A stretch of 64,000 bases of DNA from a virus. This document shows positions 29,885-53,805 of the stretch, piece by piece. The stretch spans positions 165,889 through 229,888 of IMG/VR virus record IMGVR_UViG_3300045988_154312; one strand, written 5' to 3'. How positions within the stretch are numbered: the first letter of the stretch is position 1; every line of letters starts with the position of its first letter. The notes beneath the pieces are model-generated. The model made no database searches. It was not told the DNA's origin and saw nothing but the letters and a program-made list of their open reading frames with translations. Made by a program: the position numbers and the translations under genes.

Positions 29885-30397
29885 ATGATCGACTTAAATA
29901 AATTAAAAAAATGTATCGATTTAGATAATCCAAATAAAGCTTTAGAATATTTAGAGAATAATATAACTAAACATGAATTATACATGTATATTGTTAATAA
30001 AATCATCGATCAAAAAAATAATGATTGTGTTTGTATTCCGATGCCTACAGTCTATAATTTATTTATGTCTTATATTCAGGATAAGTGTAATGAACCTTAT
30101 AAATTATTAGAAGAAGTCATTGAAGAAAAACCATTAATCGATGTTAAATTATCTAATAATTTAAAAAATCTTCGTTTGAAAAATCTAGATGATTTTAGAA
30201 AAAAATTTATCGGAACAGAAGATGAACATAGATGGATTATTGATTTTACTAGATATATTATATATATTAATAAAGGCAAAGCAAAACATATTTATATATT
30301 AAGTCCTTTTTATTCTAAAAAAGAAGACAATATATATGGCATGTTTGTTTATAACGTTAATTTTATCGATAATTTTAAATTCGTAGATGAACGATAA
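29885..30397 (+). CDS. hypothetical protein, tandem paralog A
   Basis: Aligns along its full length with 30413..30988 (LKKxIDxxxPxKAxxYL...YIVNKIIDQK...PMPTxYNLFMS[YF]IQD...). Confidence 0.65.
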   Translation: MIDLNKLKKCIDLDNPNKALEYLENNITKHELYMYIVNKIIDQKNNDCVCIPMPTVYNLFMSYIQDKCNEPYKLLEEVIEEKPLIDVKLSNNLKNLRLKNLDDFRKKFIGTEDEHRWIIDFTRYIIYINKGKAKHIYILSPFYSKKEDNIYGMFVYNVNFIDNFKFVDER

Positions 30398-30412: not shown

Positions 30413-30988
30413 ATGAAAGAATTTAAATTAGAAGAACTTAAAAAAGCTATCGATCCTAAAGATCCGAAGAAAGCTATTAAATATTTAGGCGAAACGATTA
30501 CACGTGAGCAAATGTATACATATATCGTTAATAAAATTATCGATCAAAAAGATAACGAATGTGTATTTTTACCAATGCCTACGATGTATAATTTATTTAT
30601 GTCATTCATTCAAGATATGTGTGACGAACCATACAAACTATTAAGTGATATCATTCAGGAGAAACCAACGTTAGAGATTAAAAAGCTCAAAGAGCTTGAA
30701 ATTAAAGAAGTCGAAACTGTTGGTCCTGTTGCTAAATATTTGCTTAATAAGTTTAATCTTGAAGATTATGATGACTTTAGAAAAAAATATATCGATACAG
30801 ATTTCGAATATCGTTGGTGGCCATTATTCGTAAAATATATTTTAGAAAAGAATAATGGTAAGGCTAAGAAATTTGAATTATTAAGCCCGTTTTATGCTCC
30901 GAAAAATAGTACGAGCGATTATGACCTTTTTGCTCCTGAAGATTTCGAAGTAATCGATGATTATAAGTTCGTAAATGAAAGGGAATAA
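30413..30988 (+). CDS. hypothetical protein, tandem paralog B
   Basis: See 29885..30397. Confidence 0.65.
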   Translation: MKEFKLEELKKAIDPKDPKKAIKYLGETITREQMYTYIVNKIIDQKDNECVFLPMPTMYNLFMSFIQDMCDEPYKLLSDIIQEKPTLEIKKLKELEIKEVETVGPVAKYLLNKFNLEDYDDFRKKYIDTDFEYRWWPLFVKYILEKNNGKAKKFELLSPFYAPKNSTSDYDLFAPEDFEVIDDYKFVNERE

Positions 30989-31099
30989 TGCGTTTAGTAT
31001 ATAATAATAGAGTCTATCACATGGTCTATCTAACAGATGCCGTATTAAAAGATGGCACCTATTAAAATGCAAAAGAGCACTCGTGATTTTAATCGTGAG

Positions 31100-31600
31100 A
31101 TAAATTTTGCAAGCTAGTAGGGGTGTTGGGAAACTAGCACCTAGCGGCGGTTTTTACCCGTCCAACAAAGACACTGAATTGCTGGAAACTCCTAAAGCTT
31201 GAATAGCTACTGCGTGATATCTTTTTAAGATATGAGCGTAAATGCAGCGAAAGCAGAAAAAATATTCAAGATGGTATATGGTTAAATCCTAAGTGCTATA
31301 ATAATGGACAATCAGCAGCCAAGCCCGCAAGGGAAGGTTCAACGACTAGACCTCGTGAGGGTCGTACACTATAAGCGTTTGATAGTGGAAGTGGTGTCGC
31401 CTAAGTTGTATGTTATTACGATATGGATAAGATATAGTCTGTGCTCATGTGAAAGCATGAGGTGCACGTAATGGTGCCGGTCAGAAGTAGCGATTTTGAT
31501 TGAACAATCATCCTCTCAAAGAAGTATTCTTCGGTTTTATATATTGAAATTAAACACTAAATTTGGTAATATAATAGTATATATCTATTATTATTACGAA
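31100..31600 (+). ncRNA. group I intron ribozyme core of the IStron
   Basis: P/Q/R/S-like conserved elements at about 31176, 31310, 31337 and 31429; the same blocks occur in the recA intron. Confidence 0.65.
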
Positions 31601-31614
31601 AGGAGGTGTGCCTC

Positions 31615-32706
31615 ATGAATAAAAGTTTTAAAATTAGAATTTATCCTAACCAAGAACAACAAATATTAATTAATAAAACATTTGGTTGTATTCGATATGT
31701 TTATAATTATATGCTGAATCTTAAACAAAAAGCATATAATATATTTGAACTTAAAATAAATTTTGTAAAAACATCTAGTATTCTTACAAGACTTAAACAA
31801 CGTAAATCTTGGCTTTGCGAAGTTGATGCTGTTGCTTTACAGCAATGTTTAAGAGATTTAGATGCTGCATATACTAAATTTTTTAATGGCTCAGGATATC
31901 CTAATTTTAAATCTAAACGAGGTAAAAACTCCTATCGTACTAATGGTAAAACTATAACTTTAGATCAAAATAATAAAAAAATTAAAATCCCTAAAGTTGG
32001 TTGGATTAAATTTAGAGATAAAACTAATTTTATTGGTTTAATTAAGATTAATAATATTACTATTTCTAAATCTTCTAGCGGAAAATATTTCGCTAGTATT
32101 TTAGCCGAAGTCGATATTACAGCTTTTGCGAAAACCAAGAAAAGCTGTGGTGTCGACTTAGGGTTAAAAGATTTTTGTATTTTGAACAATGGAACTAAAT
32201 TTGAAAATCCAAAATTTTTAGTGCGTAACGAACGACGGCTCAGATTATTACAAAAATCTTTAAGTCGTAAAGTATATGGCTCTAAGAATTATGAAAAGGC
32301 CAGAATTAAATTGGCTAAATTTCATGAATATATAGCTAACTGTCGTAAAGATTATTTGCATAAAATATCATTATTTTTAGTTAAGAACTACGATATTATT
32401 TGTGCCGAAACTTTACAAGTTAAAAATATGCTTAAGAATCGCAAACTAGCTAAAGCCATTAGCGATGTTAGTTGGTATGAATTTTGTCGACAATTAGAAT
32501 ATAAATGCTTGTGGTATGATAAGAAATTTGTACAAATTAATACATATTTTGCATCATCACAACTATGTTCTAATTGTGGATTTAAAAATTCTGACGTTAA
32601 AAATCTCGATGTCCGTGAATGGACTTGCCCAGAATGTGGACAACATCACGATCGAGATATTAACGCAGCAACTAATATTTTAAATCAAGGATTAACTTTA
32701 ATATAA
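31615..32706 (+). CDS. tnpB: TnpB (IS200/IS605-family RNA-guided RuvC nuclease)
   Basis: aggagg SD; OrfB_IS605 N-terminus (FKIRIYPNQEQ); RuvC residues in GVDLG, AETL and DRDINAA; zinc ribbon CSNCG...CPECG. Confidence 0.9.
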   Translation: MNKSFKIRIYPNQEQQILINKTFGCIRYVYNYMLNLKQKAYNIFELKINFVKTSSILTRLKQRKSWLCEVDAVALQQCLRDLDAAYTKFFNGSGYPNFKSKRGKNSYRTNGKTITLDQNNKKIKIPKVGWIKFRDKTNFIGLIKINNITISKSSSGKYFASILAEVDITAFAKTKKSCGVDLGLKDFCILNNGTKFENPKFLVRNERRLRLLQKSLSRKVYGSKNYEKARIKLAKFHEYIANCRKDYLHKISLFLVKNYDIICAETLQVKNMLKNRKLAKAISDVSWYEFCRQLEYKCLWYDKKFVQINTYFASSQLCSNCGFKNSDVKNLDVREWTCPECGQHHDRDINAATNILNQGLTLI

Positions 32707-32858
32707 TTTCAATATATAGAACCGTGGGACTCACGGGGATAGCCTACTGTCTTAGTATAAGACGTGCGTAATAAGCATAAGCTTATTATAAACGCAACTA
32801 TTGGGTAGGAACCTCGTCACTTTTAGTGATGAGAGGATGTCAGGTTAGTGAAGGACTG
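32690..32858 (+). ncRNA. omega-RNA (reRNA)-like right end of the IStron
   Basis: Hairpins ccgtg-ggact-cacgg, taataagc-ataa-gcttatta and cctcgtcac...gtgatgagagg (G-U pairs valid only on +), overlapping and following the tnpB stop. Confidence 0.55.
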
Positions 32859-33021
32859 TGTGAAGACGGTAAATCTTATATTATTAATTGGGAGGATAAA
32901 GATTTTGATATAGAATATCCTAGTTCAATTTCTTTAGCATAAACTGAGTAATATATAATTGCCAGTACTGTTAAAATATACATAAGTGTGCTGGTTTTTT
33001 AGTATAACGAAAGGAAACAGC

Positions 33022-33267
33022 ATGAGCGCATCCTTTGTAATATCGATTGTCCAGCTACTCATGTTGATGGGTACTTTCATACTTTGTATAGCTTCTATAT
33101 TAATAGTAGCTGGAATATTCGATCTTCTTTGTTCTAAAGAAGAAATACGTAAAAAAGAAATTAACACACAATTAACATGGAGCATCGTCGCATTTTTAGC
33201 AACGTTGTTCTTTATTTATATTTTGTTCGATATGCAACATTTAATCGAAATAAATATAATACCTTAA
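33022..33267 (+). CDS. small two-TM membrane protein (holin-like topology)
   Basis: ATG at 33022 after gaaagga, within ORF 32986..33267. Confidence 0.5.
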   Translation: MSASFVISIVQLLMLMGTFILCIASILIVAGIFDLLCSKEEIRKKEINTQLTWSIVAFLATLFFIYILFDMQHLIEINIIP

Positions 33268-33431
33268 TTTCTATATGGATCGTATCGGTAAAACTATCGA
33301 TTGTAATTTCAAATTAGTGTTTTTTAGCCTTGGAGATGGTTGAATTTCGCTAATTTTCATGTCGCCATACGATTTGTTATTTAATATAATAGCAATAAGA
33401 AGACGAAACAGAAAGTTAGGAGATCAAACAT

Positions 33432-33749
33432 ATGAAGATTTTAAAAACTGTATTTTTTGCTTTTACGTTATTATTAGGTATTGCTTGCATACCTAATGCT
33501 AACGCTACTGAATTAACTGCGTATACGCATACAGGTAGCGTAATGGCTAACGGTGAATGGCCATACGAGGGTGCAGTTGCTAGTAACGATTATGCCCTTG
33601 GTACAATTTTAAATATTAACGGCTACAACTATGTAGTTGCAGATCGAATGGCACCTGGTATTCATGGAGTTATTGATATCTTCATGAATGACTATGATAG
33701 AGCTATTAAATTCGGTCGACAATACGGCGAAGTCTACGTCGTAGCGTAA
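33432..33749 (+). CDS. secreted 3D-domain (MltA/RlpA-like double-psi beta-barrel) protein
   Basis: Signal peptide; LTAYTHTGSVMANGEWPYEGAVASN...VVADRMAPGIHGVIDIFM...AIKFG matches the 3D-domain pattern. Confidence 0.6.
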   Translation: MKILKTVFFAFTLLLGIACIPNANATELTAYTHTGSVMANGEWPYEGAVASNDYALGTILNINGYNYVVADRMAPGIHGVIDIFMNDYDRAIKFGRQYGEVYVVA

Positions 33750-33892
33750 TCATAATCGATCCATTTTACGTATTACTCTCCCGTTAAAGTACTGGATACT
33801 ATCCAGCACATGTATATTTTAATATATTTACATATAACGTTACTATTCTCTCGTCATAGTAACTATTAATAAATAAGGATAGGCGTCTTATT

Positions 33893-35874: not shown

Positions 35875-36302
35875 TTTTTATAAAGGAAAATGTTCTGAAA
35901 CATGTCGACAAAATGGTCGAAGATTTAAACTTTCCAGAACAAATCGGAAGTTTACAAGAATTAAAAGAAATTATTACGCAGGCAATTAATTATAGTACAA
36001 GTAAAGATCGATCAGAACAATTGTATTTTAGCCTAAATGAAAAACGATTAATTCTATCGATTGATGAGCAGAATTTAGGCACATTCTATTCGGAAGAAGC
36101 AGATATGCCAATTATCTGGACAGAAATCGAAGATTTTGTACCGTCGCCACATGAAGACGATCAATATACTTATGTAAGTACAGTATACGAGACTATTATC
36201 ATTAGTGATAAATTAAAGCCATTGATTGTTGGCCTATTTTTAGATATTAGTTCAGTGTTACCAGTTAATTATATTAGGAGTTTTAAATATGAATGTAAAT
36301 AA
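35871..36302 (+). CDS. hypothetical protein
   Basis: 143-aa ORF; ATGA coupling. Confidence 0.6.
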   Translation: MIFIKENVLKHVDKMVEDLNFPEQIGSLQELKEIITQAINYSTSKDRSEQLYFSLNEKRLILSIDEQNLGTFYSEEADMPIIWTEIEDFVPSPHEDDQYTYVSTVYETIIISDKLKPLIVGLFLDISSVLPVNYIRSFKYECK

Positions 36303-36765
36303 AGCTATTAAAGAAATTAATAATGCACTGACTAATACGGTCGTCGAGATTTATGGAGACAGCGGATCTGGAAAAAGTTATATTGCAGATAAAGTTGCCG
36401 AAACAAAAGATTTTGCTTTGCTAATCGATAGTCTTATGCAACGTACAGAAGGTCAGTATTATATTATTCAATCCAACAAATTGGAAGATGCCGAAGAATT
36501 AATTAAAGATTTTGACTTAATTGTTATCGATGACTTCTTCCAATTGGCTGGTGATCCTAGGAGCAATATTTACAAATTACAAGAATGGGTTTATAATAAT
36601 AGAAAGTTGTCAATTATTTTAATTAATCAGATTCGTGCAAATTTTAATGAACGACGTCCAGAAAAATTTGTTCCGTATGCTGATTATTTATTACAACGTT
36701 ACGCCGATCGGAGATTCTATACAGAATTCAAAAATGGCGAATATGTAATTACTCAAGTTAAATGA
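36289..36765 (+). CDS. small P-loop NTPase (core-only RecA/Sak4-like, AAA_24-type)
   Basis: Walker A GDSGSGKS; Walker B-like LIVIDDF. Confidence 0.5.
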   Translation: MNVNKAIKEINNALTNTVVEIYGDSGSGKSYIADKVAETKDFALLIDSLMQRTEGQYYIIQSNKLEDAEELIKDFDLIVIDDFFQLAGDPRSNIYKLQEWVYNNRKLSIILINQIRANFNERRPEKFVPYADYLLQRYADRRFYTEFKNGEYVITQVK

Positions 36766-37420: not shown

Positions 37421-38137
37421 ATGGCATATTCTGATAAAATCGAACAGGCTGCTGTAATTTTATTTGATAAACGTGATGATCGTAATAAATTAAGCCTGCG
37501 TATTCGTGACCTATGTAATATGGATTGGTCAACCGAAACATTTACGTCATTCTCTGCTATGTGTGCTATCGAAATGTCTAAAAAGCATTATTGGGCTAAA
37601 GATTGGTCTAATATGAATTCATTGCATATGGCACGTATTTGGTGTATTCTAAATGCCGACGGTGCTACGTTAAGAGAACGTATCGATAATGCTGGCTTTA
37701 CAGGCCAAAAAATTAACGAGATGATTATCGAAGGTGGCGGGACATTACGAAAACAAAAATTTGATATAACTATTCGTAATAGTGAATGCTTTAATAGTAC
37801 TGAAATTAAATTATTAGAAGCTATTAATAGTAGAACTAAAAATAAACGTTTAGCGTCGATGCGTGAAAAGATCACGCCAGAACATCGTGAATTGGCTACG
37901 AAGCATCGTTTAGAAACTCATCAGTATGCTAAACATAAGGAAATTGCAAACAAAACTTTAAAAGAAGCAGTTAAAACTGTTAAAGAAATTAAGAAGCCAG
38001 CTCCACGATATGTTACATATAAATGTATCGTTATCGATAGTAAAAAAAGTAAATTTGATAATATTGTCAATGCAATAAAATTAATTTTGAGTGGTAATTT
38101 TAAGGAAGTAAAGGAAGAAGTCCGTGAGTGTAATTAA
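37421..38137 (+). CDS. hypothetical protein
   Basis: ATG at 37421 preceded by ggagga, within ORF 37409..38137. Confidence 0.6.
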   Translation: MAYSDKIEQAAVILFDKRDDRNKLSLRIRDLCNMDWSTETFTSFSAMCAIEMSKKHYWAKDWSNMNSLHMARIWCILNADGATLRERIDNAGFTGQKINEMIIEGGGTLRKQKFDITIRNSECFNSTEIKLLEAINSRTKNKRLASMREKITPEHRELATKHRLETHQYAKHKEIANKTLKEAVKTVKEIKKPAPRYVTYKCIVIDSKKSKFDNIVNAIKLILSGNFKEVKEEVRECN

Positions 38138-38693
38138 AGATAATGACGGTGTTCGCATCGGTATTTTTGATAAAATGCTCGAAGAACGAGTATTATTTAT
38201 CGTCGGAGAGATTAATGACGAGTTAGCAAATTCTATCGTTGCCCATTTGTTATATCTTAATAGTAAAGATAGCCGTAAACCAATTACATTGTATATTAAT
38301 AGTCCTGGCGGTGTGATTACTTCCGGATTCGCTATCTATGATACGATGAAATTAGTTAAAGCACCAGTTCATACTATCGGTTATGGTATGTGTGCTAGTA
38401 TGGCTAGTTTTCTATTAAGTATGGGTGATAAACGTAGTGTATTGCCTAATACATGTGTAATGATTCATCAACCATTGGGTGGCGCACAAGGTCAACAGAC
38501 CGAAATCGAAATCACATATAAACGTATCACATCTCTTCGTGAGAAATTTGAAAAGATGTATGCCGAAAAATCTAACGGCAAATCTTCTTATAAGCAAATT
38601 CACGAAGCTTGTGAACGTGATAATTATCTCGATGCTAAAGAAGCACTAGATATGGGTTTAGTCGATGAAATTATCGGAGGTGAAGACGAATAA
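38124..38693 (+). CDS. clpP: ATP-dependent Clp protease proteolytic subunit ClpP
   Basis: GTG start; INSPGGVITSGFAIYDTM, GMCASMASFLL (Ser) and VMIHQPLGG (His) motifs. Confidence 0.9.
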   Translation: MSVIKDNDGVRIGIFDKMLEERVLFIVGEINDELANSIVAHLLYLNSKDSRKPITLYINSPGGVITSGFAIYDTMKLVKAPVHTIGYGMCASMASFLLSMGDKRSVLPNTCVMIHQPLGGAQGQQTEIEITYKRITSLREKFEKMYAEKSNGKSSYKQIHEACERDNYLDAKEALDMGLVDEIIGGEDE

Positions 38694-39988
38694 TGAAATG
38701 TTCATTTTGTGGTAAAGACATCAACGATAATGAAAATAATCGAGTGACCTTTAGTTCTTCTGTAGACGAAAATATTTTCATCTGCCAAGATTGCGTTGAA
38801 AATATGAGTATTCAGTTGGTCGAAGATAATCCAGATTTAAATTTTGGTGTTAACTTGGAAGAAGATTTTGGTCTCGAAGATACACCAAAACCAAAGGTTA
38901 AAAAATCTAAATTATTACCTTCACAAATTAAAGAATATTTAGACGAAAGTGTAATTAATCAAGATTATGCTAAGAAAATTTTAAGTGTAGCTGTAGCTAA
39001 TCATACTAAGCTATTAGAATATAATGCACTTAAAAAAGAAAAAACTGGTATCGATGTAGAGAAATCGAACCTTTTACTTTTGGGCAAAACGGGATCGGGT
39101 AAGACATGGATAATTAAACAAATTTCTAAATATTTAAAACGTCCTTGTGTTATTGCCGACGCGAGTAGCCTTACAAAAAGCGGATTCGTGGGGGAAGATG
39201 TAAATAGCATAATTGCAAAATTATACAGAGAAGCTGGCGAAGACGTTTCGAAGACTGAACAAGGAATTGTGTACATCGATGAAATCGATAAGATTGCTGC
39301 TCGAGATCCTGAAAACGCAGGTGCTCAAGGTAGTGATATCGGTGGTCGAGATGTGCAATATGAATTATTAAAACTTGTTGAAGGTGGCAAGGTTGCTATT
39401 AAAACAGGTGGTATGTTAGGTCAAGGTTCGACAGTCGAAATCGATACGACAAATATTCTATTTATTTGTGGCGGTGCCTTTACCGGTATTGAAAAAAAGA
39501 TTGCCGAACGTTTAAATAAGTCGATCGATAACGGTTTCGGCTTTACAAATGTAAAGTCCGAAAACGAAATTCAAGATGAAATCACTTACAACGGTTTAAT
39601 CGATAATATCTTGCCAGAAGATTTAAGTAACTTCGGTATTATTCCAGAGTTATTGGGTCGATTACCAGTGATTTGTCCGTTAAAAGAATTAAGTATCGAA
39701 GATTTAGAAAATATTTTAACACAACCTAAGCATGCTATCTTTAAACAATTAAAAGAATTAGTAAGCATGTATGGTGTCGAATTAGAATTTGATGACGATA
39801 CGATTCATACGATTGCTAAATTAGCTTATGAACGTAAAACTGGTGCTCGTGCACTACGAAGTGTATGTGAAGCATTAGTCGACGATAAGATTTTCGAGAT
39901 CACTCCGAAGACTAAGAAAATTAAAATTACTAAGGAAGATGTCGAAAAGAAATTTGAATTTTATCTAAAGAAGGAGGAAAATGAATAG
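38693..39988 (+). CDS. clpX: ClpX ATPase/unfoldase
   Basis: N-terminal CSFCGK...CQDC zinc finger; Walker A LLLGKTGSGKT; Walker B IVYIDEIDK; GRLPV and ARALR motifs. Confidence 0.9.
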   Translation: MKCSFCGKDINDNENNRVTFSSSVDENIFICQDCVENMSIQLVEDNPDLNFGVNLEEDFGLEDTPKPKVKKSKLLPSQIKEYLDESVINQDYAKKILSVAVANHTKLLEYNALKKEKTGIDVEKSNLLLLGKTGSGKTWIIKQISKYLKRPCVIADASSLTKSGFVGEDVNSIIAKLYREAGEDVSKTEQGIVYIDEIDKIAARDPENAGAQGSDIGGRDVQYELLKLVEGGKVAIKTGGMLGQGSTVEIDTTNILFICGGAFTGIEKKIAERLNKSIDNGFGFTNVKSENEIQDEITYNGLIDNILPEDLSNFGIIPELLGRLPVICPLKELSIEDLENILTQPKHAIFKQLKELVSMYGVELEFDDDTIHTIAKLAYERKTGARALRSVCEALVDDKIFEITPKTKKIKITKEDVEKKFEFYLKKEENE

Positions 39989-41809: not shown

Positions 41810-42748
41810 ATGTTTAAAAATATGATTTGCGGTCTACGTAATTATCTTAAGAATACTTATAATAATAACGTCGACGCACAATATTTAAGTATTTTAACTA
41901 ATATTATTGCTAATGGTACTCGCAAAGAAAACCGTACAGGTACTGCTGCGTATAGTATTCCGCATCAGCGTATGTCTTTTGATTTATCAAAAGAATTCCC
42001 GCTGCTGACAAGTAAATTTGTCGGTCTTAAAACAGCGACGAAAGAAATGTTATGGATTTGGCAAGATAAATCTAACGACGTTAATTTATTAAATAAGAAA
42101 TACGGCGTTAAGATATGGGACGAATGGAAACGTACTGACGGTACTATCGGTAAGGCATATGGTTATCAGTTAGCAAAACAATATAAGTATTTTGACGTCG
42201 ATGCTGAAAATGCTTTTAAACTTAAAAAAGAAGGCAAAATTAGTGATTATCGTGTCGGTAAAAATGGCGAAATCTATATGGATCAGGTCGATAAATTAAT
42301 TTACGATTTACATTATAATCGCGATAGTCGACGTATGGTCGTTAGTTTGTGGAATGTCGAAGATCTTAACGATATGGCATTACAACCATGTGCATTTTTA
42401 ACCGAATGGAATGTTACCGATGGTAAATTACATTGTCTACTCAATCTCAGATCGAGCGACTGGTGCATTGGGAGCCCCTATAATATAGCACAATATGCAA
42501 TGTTAGTATTGGTATTAGCTAAAACTAGTGGATTAAAACCTGGTAAGTTTACCGTTATGATTAACGACTGTCACGTGTATGAGAATCATCTAAAAGGTGC
42601 TGTTCAGCAATTAGCTAATAAGACATATGCATTACCAAAAGTAACATTAAAAGAAGGCTTCGACAGTTTTTATGAATTCGATGCTGACTGTTTTGAAGTT
42701 AAAAATTATAAACATAGTGGCAAAATCGAATTTGAGGTTGCCGTATGA
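41810..42748 (+). CDS. thyA: thymidylate synthase (ThyA type)
   Basis: NRTGT, FPLLTSK, EMLWIW, RRMVVSLWN and LQPCAF (catalytic Cys) motifs. Confidence 0.9.
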   Translation: MFKNMICGLRNYLKNTYNNNVDAQYLSILTNIIANGTRKENRTGTAAYSIPHQRMSFDLSKEFPLLTSKFVGLKTATKEMLWIWQDKSNDVNLLNKKYGVKIWDEWKRTDGTIGKAYGYQLAKQYKYFDVDAENAFKLKKEGKISDYRVGKNGEIYMDQVDKLIYDLHYNRDSRRMVVSLWNVEDLNDMALQPCAFLTEWNVTDGKLHCLLNLRSSDWCIGSPYNIAQYAMLVLVLAKTSGLKPGKFTVMINDCHVYENHLKGAVQQLANKTYALPKVTLKEGFDSFYEFDADCFEVKNYKHSGKIEFEVAV

Positions 42749-43221
42749 TTAATATAATCGTTTGTAAAAATAACTTCGATTATATCGGTAAAGATAATAA
42801 AATGTTATATCACATCCCAAAGGATTTAGCATTTTTTAAACGAAAAACCGTTAACCATGTAATTATAATGGGCAGAAAAACATTTGAAAGTTTACCTGGT
42901 TTATTACCTAACCGTGAACATTGGGTTATTACCAGAGATCCGAGTTTTAACAAAGCTCGTTCATTTAATAGTATCGATGACGTTCTAGAGGCCATCGATC
43001 AAAATGTAGACTATTATATTATTGGTGGCGGTGAAATATATAAACAATTTATGCCATATGCCGATTCTTTATATATAACAGAAGTCGATGATTTTAAAGT
43101 AGGCGACGTTAGATTTCCGTCGATCGACATGACAAAATGGCATTTATCTGTTTCGCGTATCGATATCGATGAAAAATCTAACTTAACTCTACAATTTAAG
43201 AAATATTTACGAAAGGGCTAA
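42745..43221 (+). CDS. folA: dihydrofolate reductase
   Basis: IIMGRKTFESLP ... IIGGGEIYKQF ... LYITEV; ATGA coupling to thyA. Confidence 0.85.
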   Translation: MINIIVCKNNFDYIGKDNKMLYHIPKDLAFFKRKTVNHVIIMGRKTFESLPGLLPNREHWVITRDPSFNKARSFNSIDDVLEAIDQNVDYYIIGGGEIYKQFMPYADSLYITEVDDFKVGDVRFPSIDMTKWHLSVSRIDIDEKSNLTLQFKKYLRKG

Positions 43222-43226
43222 ACCTT

Positions 43227-43811
43227 GTGAATAATTTCATTAATATTGCCGGAACGTTATGTGATATAAAAAAATCACATACCGAACGTTCTGGCCAAGA
43301 TATATATTCTGCTAATGTTAGCATGAATATTGAAAAGAAACATATTAAAGTACCTGTTCAATTTAAAGATAATGTTAAACAGGTCTATAATTTAAAAGAA
43401 GATTCACACGTAAATCTTTACGGTGAATTGCGAACAAAAAATCTTAAACAAGATAATGACAAAAGTAAATTAAGCGTATTTGCTTTTATTACACAAGGTA
43501 ATCGGCAAGTTAATAATTATAACGAAGTTGTATTAACTGGTTTTATTTGTAAAAAGAGTAAAATTATCAATAAAAAAAGTCATAATATCTGTAGCGTGAT
43601 CATTGCTGTTAAACGTAATAACGATACGGTTCATGATTTTATTCCTTGTGTCGGTCATAACTTAAATGCTAATCTATTTCGAGATATGAAGTTACGAACT
43701 AATATTAAAGTTATCGGTAAATTTGTTAATCGAGAATATTACGATCATAAAGAACAATGTACGAAAACGACTTACGAAGTTCTCGTAAAAGATATTCAGG
43801 TGTTACCATGA
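43227..43811 (+). CDS. hypothetical protein (possibly OB-fold/SSB-like)
   Basis: GTG start; 194 aa; the fold assignment is speculative. Confidence 0.45.
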   Translation: MNNFINIAGTLCDIKKSHTERSGQDIYSANVSMNIEKKHIKVPVQFKDNVKQVYNLKEDSHVNLYGELRTKNLKQDNDKSKLSVFAFITQGNRQVNNYNEVVLTGFICKKSKIINKKSHNICSVIIAVKRNNDTVHDFIPCVGHNLNANLFRDMKLRTNIKVIGKFVNREYYDHKEQCTKTTYEVLVKDIQVLP

Positions 43812-44557
43812 TCAATCTTCGTAAACCGATCGTACGATTCGAAAAAGATTCGTTATATCGTATAACAAAAGAACCCGATACATATCTTAAAATAGAAAAT
43901 CGTGTATATTATTTCTATACAAGATTAAATAATTATCTTAACTACAATATACATATGAAATACTTAGTCGTTACTAAGCAAGGTTGGTATAAAGTAATTA
44001 GTGGTGAGATGCTCGATATTAAACGAAAACAAAAAATCATCACTTTGTCTAATAATGATGATGAAATTGTGGCAATCGAACCATTATACTCCAATTTATT
44101 CTACGTTGTTACGACTCATAACAAAATTCTTCTTATCGATATCGAGTTCAAACCGATGAACTTACGCACAACACGTGAAAGTGCCGGTAAAAAGAATCTT
44201 GTTAAACTAAGCAACGGCGAAGAAATTAAGCTAGTCCTTAATCGTTTCTACGAACAGGAACTTAATAGCTTGCTTATTATTAACGATCGTGGAGAAATTA
44301 AAGTTATTGACGATGCCCCGCATAGAAGAAAAGGTAATTTGCCAAAACCTATCTCCAAAGATATCCCTATTAAACTTATCGTTCCTTTAAATAAATTAAA
44401 CAATTCGATTATCGGTATCGATAATTATATATATTTATTAAATGAATATGATTTTAAAGATTACGTTAAAAAATATAACGGAATGTTTAAAAAGTATCCT
44501 AAATTTAAAGGAAAAGTATTTACGAACTATGAGCTCGTTAAAGGTGTAACATATTAA
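43808..44557 (+). CDS. hypothetical protein
   Basis: ATG at 43808 (ATGA coupling) within ORF 43757..44557. Confidence 0.6.
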   Translation: MINLRKPIVRFEKDSLYRITKEPDTYLKIENRVYYFYTRLNNYLNYNIHMKYLVVTKQGWYKVISGEMLDIKRKQKIITLSNNDDEIVAIEPLYSNLFYVVTTHNKILLIDIEFKPMNLRTTRESAGKKNLVKLSNGEEIKLVLNRFYEQELNSLLIINDRGEIKVIDDAPHRRKGNLPKPISKDIPIKLIVPLNKLNNSIIGIDNYIYLLNEYDFKDYVKKYNGMFKKYPKFKGKVFTNYELVKGVTY

Positions 44558-44850
44558 TGGACACAACACATTTAGAAACTTCTTTAGCCTCATATGTCGG
44601 TATGTTCTCTCAAACATTACAAGGAACAAATACCGAAAAGAATCAAGCAATTATTAGTACTTTTTTAAAAGTAATTAATAATTTAATGATTGCTGAAGAC
44701 GTACAAAAAGATGTTGCTATTAAACCTATTATTATGTTAGTATTAGAATACTTAGTAGATTATAATAATTTACTTGCTAAAAATGGCAAAGCCGACCAAG
44801 ATGTAGCTACGGCAATTAAAGTACTTAATACTATTTCTAACAGACAATAG
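44557..44850 (+). CDS. hypothetical protein
   Basis: 97-aa ORF. Confidence 0.6.
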   Translation: MDTTHLETSLASYVGMFSQTLQGTNTEKNQAIISTFLKVINNLMIAEDVQKDVAIKPIIMLVLEYLVDYNNLLAKNGKADQDVATAIKVLNTISNRQ

Positions 44851-44859
44851 GAGGTTTAT

Positions 44860-45123
44860 ATGGCAAGAAAAAAAGCAGAAACTATTATCGAAGACAAAGC
44901 CAAAGTAACTGATATCGAACGTAAAAAACGTATCGAACTCGTAATGGCAAATCTTCGCAAAAAAAACGATGGTATTATTGTCGGAAAGCTCAGTGATCCT
45001 GAAGTAAAAGAACAGCTTCACTTTGAATTTATTCCGACACCATCGATTAATTTTAATTCTGCGACTGGCGGAGGTATTCCTAAAGGAAATGTTTGTATTA
45101 TCGCCGGTGCAGAAGATTCGGGT
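44860..45123 (+). CDS. recA: RecA recombinase, exon 1 (ends inside Walker A, ...GAEDSG)
   Basis: aggagg SD; ...GGGIPKGNVCIIAGAEDSG, after which the frame runs into non-RecA sequence and a stop. Confidence 0.8.
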
Positions 45124-45336
45124 AAAATATTTGCCCCTACAATTAGTGATAATTGTATGCAAATTCTGTGATATGCTGGAAAGCCCTATGAGGTAATCAG
45201 CAGGCAGCTTAATCGCGCCCCAACGACTATCCGTAAGGAGTACGCTACAGAAGTAGCGGAAGCGCAGAACATCTTAATTAAGATGATGATATAGTCTACT
45301 CCCCTAATAAATATCGGGAAACCGAGGGTATGAAGG
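45124..45336 (+). ncRNA. ORF-less group I intron (213 nt) in recA
   Basis: P1 pairing gggu/gccc with U-G at the 5-prime splice site; Q/R/S-like blocks taatcagcaggc, ccaacgactatc and gatatagtct; last nt is G; both splice sites are in phase 0. Confidence 0.75.
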
Positions 45337-46248
45337 AAAACAAGTTTAATTCTTGAAACAATCGGTAAGATGCACCGTGAAAACTCAGAAGGTCATTTTG
45401 CTTTATGGCTTGAAAGCGAAGCATCACTAAACTTAGATTATATGGTAAATCAGTTTGGTATCGATCCAGAACGATTTTTCTTTATTCAGTTCGATCGAAA
45501 CCATTCGGCCGAACAATGTTTAGATCAAGCTGAATCATTATTGCAAACTGGCGTATTCGATTTATTCTGTATCAATACATTAAAAGCATTAATTCCAGAA
45601 TCTGAAATGAATAAATCGATGGAACAAATTAATGTTGGTGCCGCTGCGCGAATGAATAGTCGGGCAATGGGTAAATTCGTACCGTTGATTAAACAATATA
45701 AAACGGCAATGGTATTAATCCAACATTTAACGACTAACATCGGTGGTTTTAGTATGTATGGCGACAATTTAATTTTAGCTGGCGGTCGTGCTATTCGTAC
45801 GGCTAGCATACTAACTGTCGAAATGCGTAAAGCTAGTATATTGGATACTGATCCTATCGGTAAAGAAGACGGTATTAAAATTAATTGTAAGATTACTAAA
45901 AACCATTGTATTCCGAGAGAATTCCCGTATCGTAAATTTACGTATTATGCAATCTTTGGTGAAGGCATCGAACAAATTCTTAGTACACTCGATGAATTAA
46001 TCGATATGGGTATTATTCATAAAGCTGGTGCTTGGATGCAACAGCTTGATCCAGAGACTGGAGAGATTGTCGACAAATGGAATGGCCGTAATGCCTTTAG
46101 AGAAGACATGAAAGCCAATCCTGATAAACTTGAAAAGCTTAAATCTTTAGTTCACGGTACCTTCGAAACTCTTAGCGAAGAAGAGGTTGTCGAAATTAAA
46201 GAACAAGAAAAATTAGCCGAAGAAGCTGAAGAGGCTACTAATGGCTAA
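45337..46248 (+). CDS. recA: RecA recombinase, exon 2 (starts KTSLILE...)
   Basis: Junction restores GAEDSGKTS; downstream blocks typical of RecA (VGAAARMNSRAMGKF, MVLIQHLT, LAGGRAI, KNH, FGEGI, KAGAW). Confidence 0.85.
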   Translation, partial: KTSLILETIGKMHRENSEGHFALWLESEASLNLDYMVNQFGIDPERFFFIQFDRNHSAEQCLDQAESLLQTGVFDLFCINTLKALIPESEMNKSMEQINVGAAARMNSRAMGKFVPLIKQYKTAMVLIQHLTTNIGGFSMYGDNLILAGGRAIRTASILTVEMRKASILDTDPIGKEDGIKINCKITKNHCIPREFPYRKFTYYAIFGEGIEQILSTLDELIDMGIIHKAGAWMQQLDPETGEIVDKWNGRNAFREDMKANPDKLEKLKSLVHGTFETLSEEEVVEIKEQEKLAEEAEEATNG

Positions 46249-46864
46249 TTGTTTATTCGGAGATGAGTGGTATACATGTCTTACCGTTACGGGAAATAAA
46301 TGTACAGAATGTATTAAACATGACTCTGAACTAAGTAAGAAAAAATTAAAACAAACTAAATTTAAAGCCCGTCCGGATAAACGGATGGGCTCTAAATTTG
46401 AGTTGAAGAATCATAATGCTAACGAAGCTTTAGTTAACGATGTCGTTAATAGAATGACTCCTAATAGTGGAGCGGGCAAGATTAAAGGCGATCAAGAAAT
46501 TAAAGGTATTATTAGCGTTAGCGAAGAATTAAAAACTCAAGTAGCTGAAAAGGCTCGCGGAAAGAAAACATTTACGATCCATAAAGAATGGCTCGATAAA
46601 TTAAAGCGAGAATCTCAGGATCGAGAATTTTACTACTTGAAATTTTGTTTTCACGAAAGTGAAGACGATGTATTTGTCGTCGTCGATCAAGAAATCATTA
46701 TGTCTATGATTAAGACTATGATCGAAGACAGGAGAAAGGCTAATAATGCTGATCATCTAATACGATTAGCTAATCTCGAACGAGATAAAGCTATAGCCGA
46801 AAATAATCTATTAAGAGCCGAGAAGGCACTGTTGGAGGAAAAGATAAATGAGCCTACTGAATGA
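46241..46864 (+). CDS. possible PD-(D/E)xK nuclease / Hjc-like Holliday junction resolvase
   Basis: N-terminal Cys cluster; G-x-x-FE ... SGAGKIKGDQEI ... SEELK pattern. Confidence 0.35.
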   Translation: MANCLFGDEWYTCLTVTGNKCTECIKHDSELSKKKLKQTKFKARPDKRMGSKFELKNHNANEALVNDVVNRMTPNSGAGKIKGDQEIKGIISVSEELKTQVAEKARGKKTFTIHKEWLDKLKRESQDREFYYLKFCFHESEDDVFVVVDQEIIMSMIKTMIEDRRKANNADHLIRLANLERDKAIAENNLLRAEKALLEEKINEPTE

Positions 46865-47471
46865 AGCTCGTAGTAAACATGCCGAACGTATCTGGAACGA
46901 ATATTTAGAAAATTACAAACAATATCCTGTTCCAGAATATGTAAAGCAAGATTTATTACTACCTATTAACTCAGAGCCTGAAAAGCGTAGCGATATTATA
47001 ATTATTAAAGATCCGTATCCAGAAAGTACATCTGTATTTGATAGAGATCATGTATATGCTTCAGTGTTTAAAGTATTAAATAAGAATATTCCGATTAAAG
47101 GTAATACTGTTATCGATTGCTTGCCATATACTCCGTTCGTTACGATCGGAGATAAAATTAAATATCGTGCGCCAAATCTTGAAGAGCAAAAGATTGCACG
47201 ACAATATTTATACGAACTAATCGATTGCGTTAACCCTAAGTTGATTATCTTATTCGGGAATATTTCTTTACATATGTTTAAAGAAGATAGTACTATTTTA
47301 AAAGATAGAGGTACGGCTTTTACTAATATGGGTCATTTATTCTTCCCAATGTATAGTGTTAACTATATTAAAAAATTAGAAGGAGAGATGAAGAAAGAAG
47401 CCGAATCTATTCTAATTAAAGATATCGAAACGTGTAGTGCACTATATAAAACAATTATGGAGGAAAAATAA
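46848..47471 (+). CDS. uracil-DNA glycosylase superfamily-like protein (divergent)
   Basis: ...RAPNLEEQKIARQYLYELIDCVNPKLIILFGNISLHMF resembles the family 4/5 UDG core; canonical motifs are not intact. Confidence 0.35.
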   Translation: MSLLNEARSKHAERIWNEYLENYKQYPVPEYVKQDLLLPINSEPEKRSDIIIIKDPYPESTSVFDRDHVYASVFKVLNKNIPIKGNTVIDCLPYTPFVTIGDKIKYRAPNLEEQKIARQYLYELIDCVNPKLIILFGNISLHMFKEDSTILKDRGTAFTNMGHLFFPMYSVNYIKKLEGEMKKEAESILIKDIETCSALYKTIMEEK

Positions 47472-48163
47472 TGCCGTTAGATAAAGATTTTGATCTATTT
47501 GATGAAATCGAAGATCAGGAAGTACCTGGTCTAGATACTGAACTTAAAGAAGAATCTAAACTAGATCTTATTACAGATGAAGATACTGTTACTATTAAAG
47601 AAGAAGTAACAGAAGAAATTAACGAAGAAACTGTTAAGGAAGATGAAGTTGTCGAAGACAACGAACCAATTAAGAAAATTAAAACGACAGGTGAAACATT
47701 TAATCGTATCAGTGATTTTATTGTCAATCCTGTAGCTGACGATGAATGGGAACGCTTTAAAAACGATACCTTGATTAAAATGTCTGGTATTCAAATTAAA
47801 GAAAACATTCCGCCTAACGTTATTTTACATGTAGCAGCTGATTTGGATAGCATGTATAGTTCTATCTACGATAAATATATGGAGACAAAAACTGGCTTAG
47901 AAAATTTTACGAATAAAGAAGACGGTATTTTAGCCGTTATTAAGGCAACGAATGCTAAAGGTTCTAACGAAACAGAACGTAAGGCTAATGGCGTTGCTGC
48001 AGCTGAAAAATATAAAATCGATAAGACAACTGTTAATTTATTTCATTTGATTGCAGAAACACGTAGTCGTTTGAATTTCTTGCAAGGAATTATTGACCAA
48101 GTTCGTTTTAAGAAAGATTTATTAGTGACAGCATCTGCTGCAATTAAGGTATTAAATAAGTAG
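47471..48163 (+). CDS. hypothetical protein with an acidic N-terminal half
   Basis: 230-aa ORF; ATAATG coupling. Confidence 0.6.
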   Translation: MPLDKDFDLFDEIEDQEVPGLDTELKEESKLDLITDEDTVTIKEEVTEEINEETVKEDEVVEDNEPIKKIKTTGETFNRISDFIVNPVADDEWERFKNDTLIKMSGIQIKENIPPNVILHVAADLDSMYSSIYDKYMETKTGLENFTNKEDGILAVIKATNAKGSNETERKANGVAAAEKYKIDKTTVNLFHLIAETRSRLNFLQGIIDQVRFKKDLLVTASAAIKVLNK

Positions 48164-48230
48164 ACAAATAGCTTCTTTTATGATATTATAATTGTATAAA
48201 CAATGTAATTATTATAAAGGAGCATTTTCT

Positions 48231-48860
48231 ATGTTAACATTAAAAGAAATTTTTCAAACAAGAAATATCAGTCAAGACTTTTTTAAGTCTAATAAGTATG
48301 TGAATCAAGGCGCATCATATTTAAGTATTGATGACGTTACTATGATTCTTAATGAGTTGTTTAATGGCAACTGGTCTTTTGAAGTAGTACGTACTTGGTC
48401 AGAAACATATCTCGCTTATAATCAAGAAAAATCTGATAATAAGACAGAAGACACATATTTCTATGCCCACGGTCGTTTAACTATTAATACATTAAACGAA
48501 GACGGATCTCCTTTACAAATTATTAAAGAAGATATTGGCAGTAATTGTGTTCGTAAGTCTGATAAAAATAATAGAATGGATTATTCTAGCGGATATAAAT
48601 CTGCCGTAAGTAGTGCTTTAAAAGGCTGTGCTGCCAACTTAAATATTGCTGTATTTAAAGATGATAATTTCGACAATATTAAAGAATTTATTAATAAGAA
48701 AAAACTTAAAGCATATAAAGCTCAGGATGGAAAATGTTTTAGTGATATTGTTACTAAGTTTGCAGAAAATAATAATATTAGTCCAAAAGAAGCTTTAAGT
48801 GATCGTAAATTCTTAAATATGTTAGTATTATACATCGAAAGAGAAAGTGGCGAACAATAA
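48231..48860 (+). CDS. Rad52/Sak-type single-strand annealing protein
   Basis: ATG at 48231 after aaaggagc; ...ASYLSIDDVTMILNELFNGNWSFEV ... YKSAVSSALKGCAANLNIAV. Confidence 0.6.
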   Translation: MLTLKEIFQTRNISQDFFKSNKYVNQGASYLSIDDVTMILNELFNGNWSFEVVRTWSETYLAYNQEKSDNKTEDTYFYAHGRLTINTLNEDGSPLQIIKEDIGSNCVRKSDKNNRMDYSSGYKSAVSSALKGCAANLNIAVFKDDNFDNIKEFINKKKLKAYKAQDGKCFSDIVTKFAENNNISPKEALSDRKFLNMLVLYIERESGEQ

Positions 48861-49051
48861 TGATTATTTCAGATCCAGAGGATAAAGTATATTTTAAATG
48901 TCCTCGATGCGGGAATCGACGATTCGAAAAGGTCGAGTTATTTGAGTTCAAAATGTTCCCACGACAAAATGAATATACTGCATTAAAAGATGCGGATGTT
49001 TATCGTTGTCATAACTGTAAACATATCGTAACGAAAGATCAAGTCCGTTAA
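48860..49051 (+). CDS. small zinc-ribbon protein
   Basis: CPRCGN ... CHNCKH. Confidence 0.6.
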   Translation: MIISDPEDKVYFKCPRCGNRRFEKVELFEFKMFPRQNEYTALKDADVYRCHNCKHIVTKDQVR

Positions 49052-49068
49052 GGGCTTGGTCTTTTTTT
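49036..49068 (+). terminator. rho-independent terminator overlapping a stop codon
   Basis: agatcaag ... cttggtct (one G-U) plus T7. Confidence 0.7.
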
Positions 49069-49087
49069 ATTAGTATAGGAGACAACA

Positions 49088-49702
49088 ATGTTAATTAATT
49101 TGTACGATTATCGAATTAACATTAGAACGGCTGGCCCATCGATGCACGATAATTTGCGAAGTGAATTATACTTTGCGGGTTGTCAACGTGCTATGAATGG
49201 TACACCATGTAAGGGTTGTTTTAACTATGATCTATGGCAAAGTGATGTCGGCAGCATGATCGATCACAAATTAATAGTTCTTAAGTTAAACGACATGGGA
49301 TCTGTTAAGAGTGTTACGATTGTCGGTGGTGAACCTACTGATCAAATCGATGGCTTAGTTGAATTATGTAAAGAATTAAAAGCTAACGGCTATCATATTA
49401 TCGTAATCACATGGAAGTCGTTAGAAGATATTTGGAAATTTGACGATGTCGATAAATATATCGAGTTATTCTATAACATCGATATGTTAGTCGATGGCGT
49501 ATACGATGAACATCAACGTATCTATGATGATACCGAAACAGTTCCGTTATATAGTTTTGTCGGTAGTTCTAATCAATTAATTCATGACTTCAGTAAGTAT
49601 ATTGAAGGTCATAAAGTTTTTAAATCATATCGCATCACAAAAGATATTATCGATATGAAAATTCGTGAAGATGGAGGGGCTGAATTTGTCCGACGTAATT
49701 AA
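49088..49702 (+). CDS. nrdG: anaerobic ribonucleotide reductase activating protein-like radical SAM enzyme
   Basis: FAGCQRAMNGTPCKGCFN cluster, VTIVGGEPT, LVDGVYD ... VGSSNQLIHDF (NrdG C-terminal signature). Confidence 0.7.
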   Translation: MLINLYDYRINIRTAGPSMHDNLRSELYFAGCQRAMNGTPCKGCFNYDLWQSDVGSMIDHKLIVLKLNDMGSVKSVTIVGGEPTDQIDGLVELCKELKANGYHIIVITWKSLEDIWKFDDVDKYIELFYNIDMLVDGVYDEHQRIYDDTETVPLYSFVGSSNQLIHDFSKYIEGHKVFKSYRITKDIIDMKIREDGGAEFVRRN

Positions 49703-50162: not shown

Positions 50163-50187
50163 TTTTAATTAACAAAAGGAAGTAAAA

Positions 50188-53339: not shown

Positions 53340-53355
53340 GGAATTAGATTAATAA

Positions 53356-53727: not shown

Positions 53728-53735
53728 GTAATATA

Positions 53736-53760
53736 TAATTACGATACCGTAATTATTTTT
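53736..53760 (+). terminator. rho-independent terminator
   Basis: taattacg-atac-cgtaatta plus T5. Confidence 0.65.
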
Positions 53761-53805
53761 ACAATATATACGTATATTTTATTTTAAAACAGGAGGACAA
53801 TTATT

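Follow-up and report, generated by a model that had tools for sequence, protein, structure and literature searches.

The 64,000-nt stretch of phage DNA analysed here, termed the window, carries an insertion of 1,781 nt on the + strand (31063–32843), whose ends we set by comparison with empty sites in related phages. We identify this element with high confidence as a non-autonomous group A IStron, i.e. an IS200/IS605-type transposon combined with a group I intron, inserted in sense orientation and in phase at codons 14/15 of a small conserved phage gene. Its modules follow each other in the order group I ribozyme, tnpB and omega-RNA-like 3' end. The initial annotation had proposed an IStron-like chimera of these three parts at 31085–32858; the chimera was borne out, as every IStron hallmark that we tested was present, and the boundaries had to be moved, by 22 nt outwards at the left end and by 15 nt inwards at the right end. 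The insertion site and the ends of the element are made up of the following features:

31063–32843, + strand: whole IStron; the transposon left end is the predicted 5' splice site and the right end the predicted 3' splice site
31021–31062, + strand: exon 1 of a 46-codon open reading frame (MVYLTDAVLKDGTY); its last bases, CCTAT (31058–31062), serve as target/TAM-like motif and also provide P1 with its 5'-exon strand
32844–32942, + strand: exon 2 of the 46-codon open reading frame (VSEGLCEDGKSYIINWEDKDFDIEYPSSISLA), with the stop codon at 32940–32942
31080–31099, + strand: subterminal hairpin CTCGTGATTTTAATCGTGAG of the left end, from which it is 17 nt away; candidate binding site of TnpA (Y1), judged from its sequence
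31502–31507, + strand: GAACAA motif, which marks the intron/IS junction in published IStrons (PMC4227781)
32840–32843, + strand: TCAG 3' terminus, in which G32843 is the terminal G of the intron; TCAG is published for group A IStrons (PMC13565253)

Four related phage contigs (L009, L014, L016 and L020) contain the empty site, ...CTAT followed directly by GTTAGTGAAGG..., where the sequences corresponding to window positions 30700–31062 and 32844–33300 are contiguous and join exactly at 31062/32844. Neither part is present at these empty sites, and intron and tnpB thus represent one joint insertion, not the independent insertions that would have told against the initial annotation. Joining 31021–31062 to 32844–32942 yields an open frame of the same length as the uninterrupted homologues in these four contigs and in L012, from which it differs by 4–6 synonymous versus 1–2 non-synonymous codons. 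The site is thus polymorphic among related phages, being either occupied or empty, and the empty alleles share CTAT and GTTAGTGAAGG before diverging at positions 12–13, or 12 and 15, of the predicted guide. For annotation, the lesson is that gene callers overlook a small open reading frame split in this way.

The insertion point lies directly 3' of CCTAT, a T-rich pentanucleotide ending in T, and the right end ...GGATGTCAG, terminating in TCAG, is kept in 32 of 35 copies of the element, after which unrelated flanks begin. These DNA boundaries match the splice-site needs of a group I intron, as the 5' exon closes with a U that pairs with a G in the internal guide sequence (IGS) and the element itself with a G; the ends therefore carry features of an IS200/IS605 element and of a group I intron alike. 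At the DNA level, the boundaries coincide with the predicted splice sites and removal of the element restores the host sequence. Furthermore, the left-end hairpin and the right-end hairpin CTCGTCACTTTTAGTGATGAG (32812–32836) are alike and lie on one strand, which is what IS200/IS605 ends should show; both ends have a subterminal hairpin as putative TnpA binding site. Further group A features of the element itself are the GAACAA motif, which lies past P9.2, and the AU-rich inverted repeat flanking the open reading frame.

Scanning a 2.3-kb region against Rfam yielded a match to the group I intron model RF00028 at 31075–31461 (+ strand) with 74.6 bits, compared to a gathering score of 50, an E value of 1.6e-18 and coverage of the full model (1–253 of 253). 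Two scans of the whole window, in gathering and E-value modes, lost this match to speed filters. Since the small-region scan recovers the intron, these misses are filter artefacts rather than absence, and whole-contig Rfam scans may overlook such introns. The ribozyme and its helices comprise:

31075–31461, + strand: core of the group I ribozyme, from P2 through P9; P lies at 31177–31188, Q at 31310–31320, R at 31335–31349 and S at 31429–31440
31115–31121, + strand: IGS UAGUAGG, pairing with CCUAU/UA (31058–31064); the splice-site wobble of P1 is U31062-G31117
31509–31518, + strand: segment A (CATCCTCTCA), complementary to A' (32830–32839) at 10 of 10 positions
32830–32839, + strand: segment A' (TGAGAGGATG), by its coordinates shared between the A:A' helix (splicing fold) and the terminal hairpin of the omega-RNA or right-end DNA hairpin
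31530–31552, + strand: segment B, 5' arm of the AU-rich inverted repeat enclosing the tnpB open reading frame; its partner is 32704–32726
32704–32726, + strand: segment B', 3' arm of the inverted repeat, overlapping the first omega-RNA stem (32722–32726)

The textbook P, Q, R and S elements noted initially were all located, and each of the core blocks occurs only once in the window (AATTGCTGGAAA at 31177, AATCAGCAGC at 31310, GTTCAACGACTA at 31337 and AAGATATAGTC at 31429). The core is 70–78% identical to introns of Staphylococcus (Twort-like), Listeria and Clostridium phages. Subclass IA2, with P7.1/P7.2 and an extended P9, is the one expected of group A IStrons; in the window copy, hairpins are present after P9. 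The P1 duplex has a calculated energy of −8.0 kcal/mol and forms also in the minimum-energy fold of a construct lacking the open reading frame. Across the copies, the IGS covaries with the target in 19 of 19 cases, pairing CTAT with GUAG (n = 7), TTAT with GUAA (n = 3) and YGAT with GUCC (n = 9).

Two long-range helices, A:A' and B:B', bracket the tnpB and omega-RNA domain, with the 3' splice site located at the transposon right end, 1.3 kb past the ribozyme core. The A:A' duplex (−16.9 kcal/mol) shows C-G/U-G/U-A exchanges among copies at 31509, 31513 and 31515, and as modelled this helix would carry the 3' splice site to the ribozyme; the competing terminal hairpin of A' amounts to −11.7 kcal/mol. 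The B:B' duplex spans 21 nt with 95% complementarity (−27.5 kcal/mol), and 20–23 of its 23 positions are paired in 25 of 30 copies, where it is mostly invariant and therefore displays little covariation. It matches the inverted-repeat stem reported for IStrons (PMC4227781).

Two ordinary group I introns that the initial annotation had placed nearby were not reproduced by profile or sensitive Rfam scans. An nhmmer profile of the intron family gave 31064–31519 as its sole match in the whole window, and sensitive Rfam scans of 43000–54700 returned no intron; regions 1–30800 and 54700–64000 were covered by nhmmer and by the insensitive whole-window Rfam scans only. Mismatch-tolerant matches to the core motifs elsewhere in the window were at chance level and were not taken as introns.

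The protein-coding and 3' modules consist of the following features:

31544–31572, + strand: promoter-like site TTGAAA-17-TAATAT with TG upstream, ahead of tnpB; putative, from a consensus scan
31615–32706, + strand: tnpB, 363 aa, intact with an ATG start; ribosome-binding site AGGAGG 8 nt upstream
32722–32843, + strand: omega-RNA-like scaffold, with stem 32722–26/32732–36, long-range stem 32743–47/32805–09, internal hairpins, terminal hairpin 32812–32836 and tail AUGUCAG
32844–32863, + strand: predicted guide part of the omega-RNA (GTTAGTGAAGGACTGTGTGA), assigned because it adjoins the right end on its 3' side; exon 2 begins with the same bases

The encoded TnpB contains the Pfam domains HTH_OrfB_IS605, OrfB_IS605 and Cas12f1-like_TNB and aligns end to end with ISDra2 TnpB (8bf8/8exa/8h1j; E 1.1e-98). 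The alignment retains the RuvC D/E/D residues and the zinc ribbon, as GVDLG, ICAETL, HDRDINAA and CSNCG...CPECG align with the ISDra2 TnpB motifs, confirming the intact TnpB read from the sequence at the outset. Judged by sequence comparison, tnpB is under purifying selection, with dN/dS values of 0.13–0.33 against 22 relatives and 23 of 23 reading frames intact. The same position as the promoter-like site reads TTGAAA-17-TATAAT in L002 and other copies; promoter-like matches are equally frequent in shuffled sequence. In agreement with the earlier observation of a missing tnpA, tblastn with TnpA sequences found no homologue in the element or in the whole 64-kb window.

The 137 nt past the tnpB stop codon fold well (z = −3.9), and the 3' hairpins with + strand-specific G-U pairs described initially are confirmed by this value as well as by covariation. 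In an alignment of the scaffold from 30 copies, 8 pairs changed on both sides and 91% of cells were paired, a result reached by 0 of 500 shuffles and compared to 29–52% in slid controls. For the terminal hairpin, the single-sequence and alignment folds are one register apart, and the supported pairs are the outer CCUC/GAGG only. A structured scaffold thus extends from the 3' end of tnpB to the right end, as in OMEGA systems, with a predicted guide in the flank.

Among 35 copies we counted at least 29 distinct 3' flanks and hence at least 29 different insertion sites, with target motifs of NYTAT or NYGAT. These relatives at many different sites in related phages fit the early suggestion that the element spreads within phage genomes. 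All 28 of the 28 evaluated copies are co-oriented with the flanking genes, which could stem from an insertion strand bias of IS200/IS605 elements instead of selection for splicing. Most relatives, like the window copy, are devoid of tnpA, and several retain tnpB without the ribozyme part (L002–5, L008, L009, L013, L018, L020 and L030). A sibling element, L016:6200–8394, splits in frame the homologue of the window gene 36289–36765 and carries a Y1 TnpA (L016:6716–7150; Y1_Tnp, 132.7 bits). The same TnpA was found in 12 contigs of the lineage at at least 6 sites, and 5 of those contigs also hold window-type copies; the Y1 transposase characteristic of group A IStrons is therefore present in the family through these siblings and absent from the window copy.

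Within this one phage lineage the family is very diverse, forming more than 120 clusters at 90% identity. Copies diverge by dS of ~0.5–0.9, giving no sign of very recent transposition. The host phage is without close cultured relative, its helicase being ~35% identical at best, and none of 50,697 phage records was matched by megablast with the element or with a 10-kb part of the window. The nearest bacterial TnpB relatives in a scan of 185,579 species genomes were at most ~50% identical, in a search that needs exact peptide words and so lends no support to a confinement of the family to phages.

In the mechanism we propose, the ribozyme core would fold on a read-through transcript of the phage gene, with the exon end CCUAU pairing with the IGS in P1, B:B' shutting off the open reading frame and A:A' placing the ...UCAG terminus at the core. 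Splicing would then remove the element in full and restore the 46-codon open reading frame, with a predicted ligated junction of ACCTAT followed by GTTAGTGAAG. Alternatively, the 3' part may fold as an omega-RNA with the first ~16–20 nt of exon 2 as guide, perhaps on transcripts that start at the conserved internal promoter-like site and do not contain the ribozyme core. Since A' and B' share bases with omega-RNA stems, and scaffold and guide are parted by splicing, the two fates would be mutually exclusive. TnpB and omega-RNA would cut the empty allele, CTAT followed by GTTAGTGAAGG (predicted target CTAT-GTTAGTGAAGGACTGT), be it one left by excision or one carried by a co-infecting phage, and recombinational repair of the cut would copy the element back. 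Use of TnpB and its guide against competing DNA, as also put forward initially, is possible. Moves to new YTAT/YGAT sites would need Y1 TnpA in trans, which sibling autonomous IStrons of the lineage encode; cross-mobilisation of the window copy, located at CTAT, is an assumption, because TnpA was encountered only in copies with the YGAT type of target.

Possibly, though we consider it rather doubtful, the element no longer transposes and persists as a group I intron with TnpB and guide RNA as its 'homing endonuclease', spreading only by cutting of the intron-less allele and repair. The prevalence of copies without tnpA, an intact tnpB under purifying selection even in these, and a site that is occupied or empty among related phages would all suit such a mode, which a review puts forward for TnpA-less IStrons as untested (PMC13565253). 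However, the at least 29 insertion sites require transposition at some time, and TnpA-bearing siblings reside in the same phage lineage. This alternative moreover concerns the present mode of spread and not the identity of the element, and it overlaps with the identification as a non-autonomous group A IStron.

It is improbable that the element is an inactive relic or a domesticated TnpB, its insertion inactivating, or tolerated in, a dispensable small gene. The copies are old, as judged by their dS, and the relatives that kept tnpB after loss of the ribozyme show that it is retainable without the intron; yet every module is intact in the window copy, including a full ribozyme, a P1 fitting its own exon, conserved ends and a covarying omega-RNA, and sense orientation is universal among the evaluated copies. 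Two separate events, with a tnpB insertion sequence landing in or next to a pre-existing free-standing group I intron, are most improbable: such introns are common in large Firmicutes phages and the core resembles those of Staphylococcus, Listeria and Clostridium phages, but neither part is present at the empty sites, the composite recurs with an identical junction (GAACAA, A and B) at many unrelated sites, the 3' splice site lies at the transposon end far beyond the core, and no ribozyme-only genome at 31062/32844 was seen among five homologous sites.

Building on the group A IStron identification, we tentatively suggest, as a broader reading that may well prove wrong, that the family radiated in one lineage of ~230-kb human-associated phages into forms that are autonomous, lack TnpA or lack the ribozyme and that occupy dozens of sites. 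TnpA-less copies would be kept and spread by TnpB-guided homing between co-infecting phages, amounting to RNA-guided intron homing, and targets would have switched from YGAT to CTAT/TTAT with matching IGS changes, presumably with shifts in TnpA site recognition and TnpB TAM preference as well.

Group A IStrons include CdISt1 of Clostridioides difficile, FnISt1/2, LbISt1, CcISt1 and others (Tourasse et al. 2014, PMC4227781). The window element shares with them the 5' group I ribozyme, the IS200/IS605 part after P9.2 with its GAACAA motif, the AU-rich inverted repeat round the open reading frame, the TCAG 3' end and the insertion 3' of a T-rich pentanucleotide ending in T, mostly intragenic and in sense. 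Like their TnpA-less members, it is missing ORF A and keeps ORF B at a size of ~1.76–1.86 kb. Unlike them, it is housed in an uncultured ~230-kb phage lineage instead of a bacterial chromosome, and its target is CCTAT/YTAT compared to the published TTGAT, ATTAT and TTTAT (PMC13565253).

Group B (IS607-type) IStrons comprise CbISt3/CbISt4 of the C. botulinum phages c-st and D-1873 and CboIStron (Zedaveinyte et al. 2023; Mortman & Sternberg 2026). Both groups follow the same logic of three functions, intron, TnpB/omega-RNA and transposase, and some group B members are likewise phage-borne. In group B, as predicted for the window element, the 3' splice site at the scaffold/guide junction renders splicing and guide RNA formation mutually exclusive, and folding for splicing competes with a terminal stem-loop in the guide RNA. 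We rejected an assignment to group B, since these elements encode a serine TnpA, insert at targets containing GG (TGGG), terminate in CGG and follow a 5' exon whose last base is G, whereas the window element lies at CCTAT, follows an exon ending in U, terminates in TCAG and has siblings with a Y1-type transposase. ISDra2 (IS200/IS605) resembles it in the full-length TnpB alignment, the retained D/E/D residues and zinc ribbon and the guide directly 3' of the right end, but has no ribozyme and no splicing. A sibling subfamily uses a (T)TGAT-like target, the TAM of ISDra2, while the window copy resides at CTAT and not at TTGAT.

As in phage group I introns that harbour genes for homing endonucleases (T4 td/nrdB/sunY, Twort, phage K), a nuclease reading frame occupies a peripheral loop of an intron in a phage gene, and a presence/absence polymorphism is expected from cleavage of empty alleles in co-infection. 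Unlike in these introns, the nuclease is TnpB, which would be guided by RNA and reprogrammed by each new flank, and the transposon ends mean that the element is not bound to one homing site. Phage co-infection is the classic arena of intron homing. IStrons as such are known, and their three-way logic of transposase, RNA-guided nuclease and ribozyme has already been dissected for a Clostridium element. To our knowledge, the group A IStrons catalogued to date come from bacterial chromosomes, and the named phage IStrons are of the IS607 type only. The novelty lies in the setting, a large uncultured phage lineage in which many diverged copies vary in the presence of TnpA and of the ribozyme, and in which sister genomes have occupied and empty alleles of one site. 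This material could be used to probe whether TnpB-guided homing spreads TnpA-less IStrons, an idea so far unproven, and the covariation of target and IGS offers a natural series in which one short DNA motif may be read by ribozyme, transposase and nuclease at once.

Relatives of the window TnpB were collected by a scan of IMG/VR, yielding 58 numbered loci. In four of these (L009, L014, L016 and L020), the counterpart of window 30700-31062 runs uninterrupted into that of 32844-33300, the joint reading ...GG(T/C)AT(C/T)TAT directly followed by GTTAGTGAAGG... upon comparison with the window. As the flanks are contiguous in all four relatives, the unit 31063..32843 was inserted as one, with ribozyme and tnpB arriving together. 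This comparison with phages lacking the insertion, proposed in the initial annotation, thereby defines the ends: the IStron-like chimera is present at the annotated locus, and its ends shift from 31085-32858 to those below.

The insertion and the gene it interrupts
31063..32843, + strand, whole IStron, 1,781 nt; ends from four empty sites
31021 (ATG) to 32940-32942 (TAA), + strand, interrupted ORF, 46 codons with the flanks joined

The element splits the 46-codon ORF, which was missed by automatic gene calling in the contig annotation, between codons 14 and 15. Its differences to five uninterrupted homologues are mainly synonymous (4-6 synonymous and 1-2 non-synonymous codons), which shows that the gene is real. 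Immediately upstream lie tandem paralogous genes (29885-30397, 170 aa; 30413-30988, 191 aa) with similar N-terminal halves and a common C-terminal ...FKFV(D/N)ER motif, for which no match was found in Pfam or PHROG. In the related phage L012 (about 3450-5225, then 5226-5285), an IStron follows GTTTAT just ahead of the ATG of the small ORF, 60 nt upstream of the position occupied in the window, so that this short stretch has received two independent insertions.

The Rfam group I intron model matched 31075-31461 (+) over its entire length with 74.6 bits (gathering score 50), and the four core blocks quoted initially start at 31177, 31310, 31337 and 31429, each occurring once in the window, bearing out the proposed group I core. 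Two Rfam scans of the entire window gave no intron, the match being recovered in a 2.3-kb scan; this miss is a filter effect, as the intron's long peripheral insertions seem to defeat the Rfam speed filters, and calls for caution in other windows too. The 5' flank terminates in U and the element in G (...GAUGUCAG). P1 pairs CCUAU/UA (31058-31064; slash, left end) with UAGUAGG (31115-31121), where U31062 faces G31117 as the predicted canonical P1 wobble. Comparison of the internal guide sequence with its target in 19 ribozyme-bearing copies revealed covariation in 19/19: CTAT with GUAG (n=7), TTAT with GUAA (n=3) and YGAT with GUCC (n=9).

The two ordinary group I introns initially reported nearby were not found, either with a family profile over the window or by Rfam scans of 43000-54700. 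At 50188-52519, an ATPase-like ORF (50188-51267) precedes a 394-aa HNH endonuclease ORF (51335-52519) that may be a free-standing homing endonuclease, and an Rfam scan of the region detected no group I intron around it. The window further contains a full-length OTKONC RNA match (RF03053; 3401-3571, +; 138.5 bits, E 5.8e-22), just below the gathering score of 141.4 and surrounded by a stretch poor in long ORFs, as well as a ClpP-like protease adjoining a ClpX-like AAA ATPase (38124-39988), a thymidylate synthase (41810-42748) and a 739-aa polynucleotide kinase/phosphatase-RNA ligase fusion (57595-59814).

Internal features of the IStron
31080-31099, + strand, left-end imperfect hairpin, 17 nt inside the left end
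31502-31507, + strand, GAACAA motif after the P9 hairpins
31509-31518 / 32830-32839, + strand, A:A', 10/10 positions complementary, duplex -16.9 kcal/mol
31530-31552 / 32704-32726, + strand, B:B', 21 nt at 95%, duplex -27.5 kcal/mol
31615 (ATG) to 32704-32706 (stop), + strand, tnpB, 363 codons; Pfam HTH_OrfB_IS605, OrfB_IS605, Cas12f1-like_TNB
32722-26 / 32732-36, + strand, first stem of the 3' RNA (30-copy alignment)
32743-47 / 32805-09, + strand, long-range stem (30-copy alignment)
32812-15 / 32833-36, + strand, base of the terminal hairpin (30-copy alignment)
32812-32836, + strand, right-end imperfect hairpin, 7 nt inside the right end

A full-length alignment of the window TnpB to ISDra2 TnpB, a protein of solved structure (E 1.1e-98), shows conservation of the RuvC D/E/D motifs (GVDLG, ICAETL, HDRDINAA) and two CxxC pairs, in agreement with the intact RuvC residues and zinc ribbon noted initially. 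In IStrons, a GAACAA-type motif past P9.2 marks where the IS part begins, and the ORFs lie within an AU-rich inverted repeat (Tourasse et al. 2014, PMC4227781); likewise, the window element has its own GAACAA after the P9 hairpins and an inverted repeat around tnpB. The complementary segments A:A' vary between copies by C-G/U-G/U-A exchanges, B:B' is kept in 25/30 copies, mostly invariant, and both, like P1, form in the minimum-energy structure predicted for a construct without the ORF.

By coordinates, A' and B' overlap the omega-RNA-like stems. Aligning 30 copies from the tnpB end to the right end showed eight pairs with changes in both partners and pairing in 91% of cells, values reached by 0/500 shuffles; slid controls were 29-52% paired. 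Many variants are G-U, which assigns the structure to the + strand RNA, in line with the initial suggestion for the 3' hairpins. Splicing at G32843 would also cut this scaffold off from its presumed guide, which starts at 32844. For CboIStron (IS607-type), a conflict between splicing and guide-RNA formation was demonstrated experimentally, and the anatomy of the window element suggests a similar one. At 32855-32856, the occupied allele has GGACTG; all five alleles without insertion at this site (L009, L012, L014, L016, L020) have GGC and then TTG, TTA or CTA, without any change to the encoded amino acids. The predicted guide mismatches these alleles at positions 12-13 or 12 and 15; possible causes are chance, co-conversion and avoidance of cleavage.

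The right end ...GGATGTCAG is kept in 32/35 copies, with unrelated sequence beyond (at least 29 different flanks). IS200/IS605 ends, as in IS608 and ISDra2, carry hairpins near both ends on the same strand. The left- and right-end hairpins of the element resemble each other, also on the same strand, and in this layout would represent putative TnpA sites. Consistent with the initial annotation, no TnpA is encoded by the element or elsewhere in the 64-kb window. L016 harbors a second, autonomous 2.2-kb IStron (about 6200-8394) with a Y1 tnpA between ribozyme and tnpB (144 aa; Pfam Y1_Tnp, 132.7 bits). It follows TCGAT and splits in frame a homologue of the P-loop ATPase-like gene 36289-36765, uninterrupted in the window. 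Twelve viral contigs carry the same TnpA (91-100% identity), at no fewer than six different sites, and window-type copies are present on five of them too. Every copy observed with a TnpA belongs to the YGAT type, and the window copy to the CTAT type.

Identical TnpB is present on nine contigs, the longest of 229,922 bp (ENA ZHAN15-1_SAMEA2738065 scaffold_8), and there are more than 120 clusters with ≥82% identity, whose contigs very frequently measure 215-237 kb; no close relative of the window was found among 50,697 deposited phage genomes. The tnpB gene was intact in 23/23 ORFs examined (dN/dS 0.13-0.33 and dS about 0.5-0.9 versus the window copy), 28/28 evaluated copies were co-oriented with the flanking genes, and several contigs among the matches listed carried two or three copies. 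Most of the ribozyme is missing in L002-5, L008, L009, L013, L018, L020 and L030. In L009, L018 and L020, a ribozyme-less tnpB lies just past the homologue of window ORF 33432-33749, with slightly differing junctions, unlike window 33750-33892, which has no insertion; the L009 copy, which starts inside the promoter-like region, apparently took the place of about 15 nt. The unannotated 113-kb phage record CP067352.1 (Clostridioides phage ES-S-0173-01) contains DNA resembling this element's ribozyme core and its tnpB, in the same order (63349-64986; about 69% identity), probably another phage-borne IStron.

Group A (IS200/IS605-type) IStrons insert after TTGAT/ATTAT/TTTAT and terminate in TCAG (2026 review, PMC13565253). 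The window element shows every sequence-level group A feature tested and lacks those of group B (IS607-type), which agrees with its initial reading as intron, TnpB and omega-RNA-like end and supports, at the sequence level, a group A IStron with corrected ends. IStrons are already known as a kind, and the window element adds a member; what makes it of note is that it resides in a phage, that its family is large and diverse, that the site is polymorphic (occupied or empty) and that target and guide covary. The initial suggestion that its TnpB acts against competing DNA gained no support from the analysis, although such action may possibly take the form of homing into co-infecting phages.
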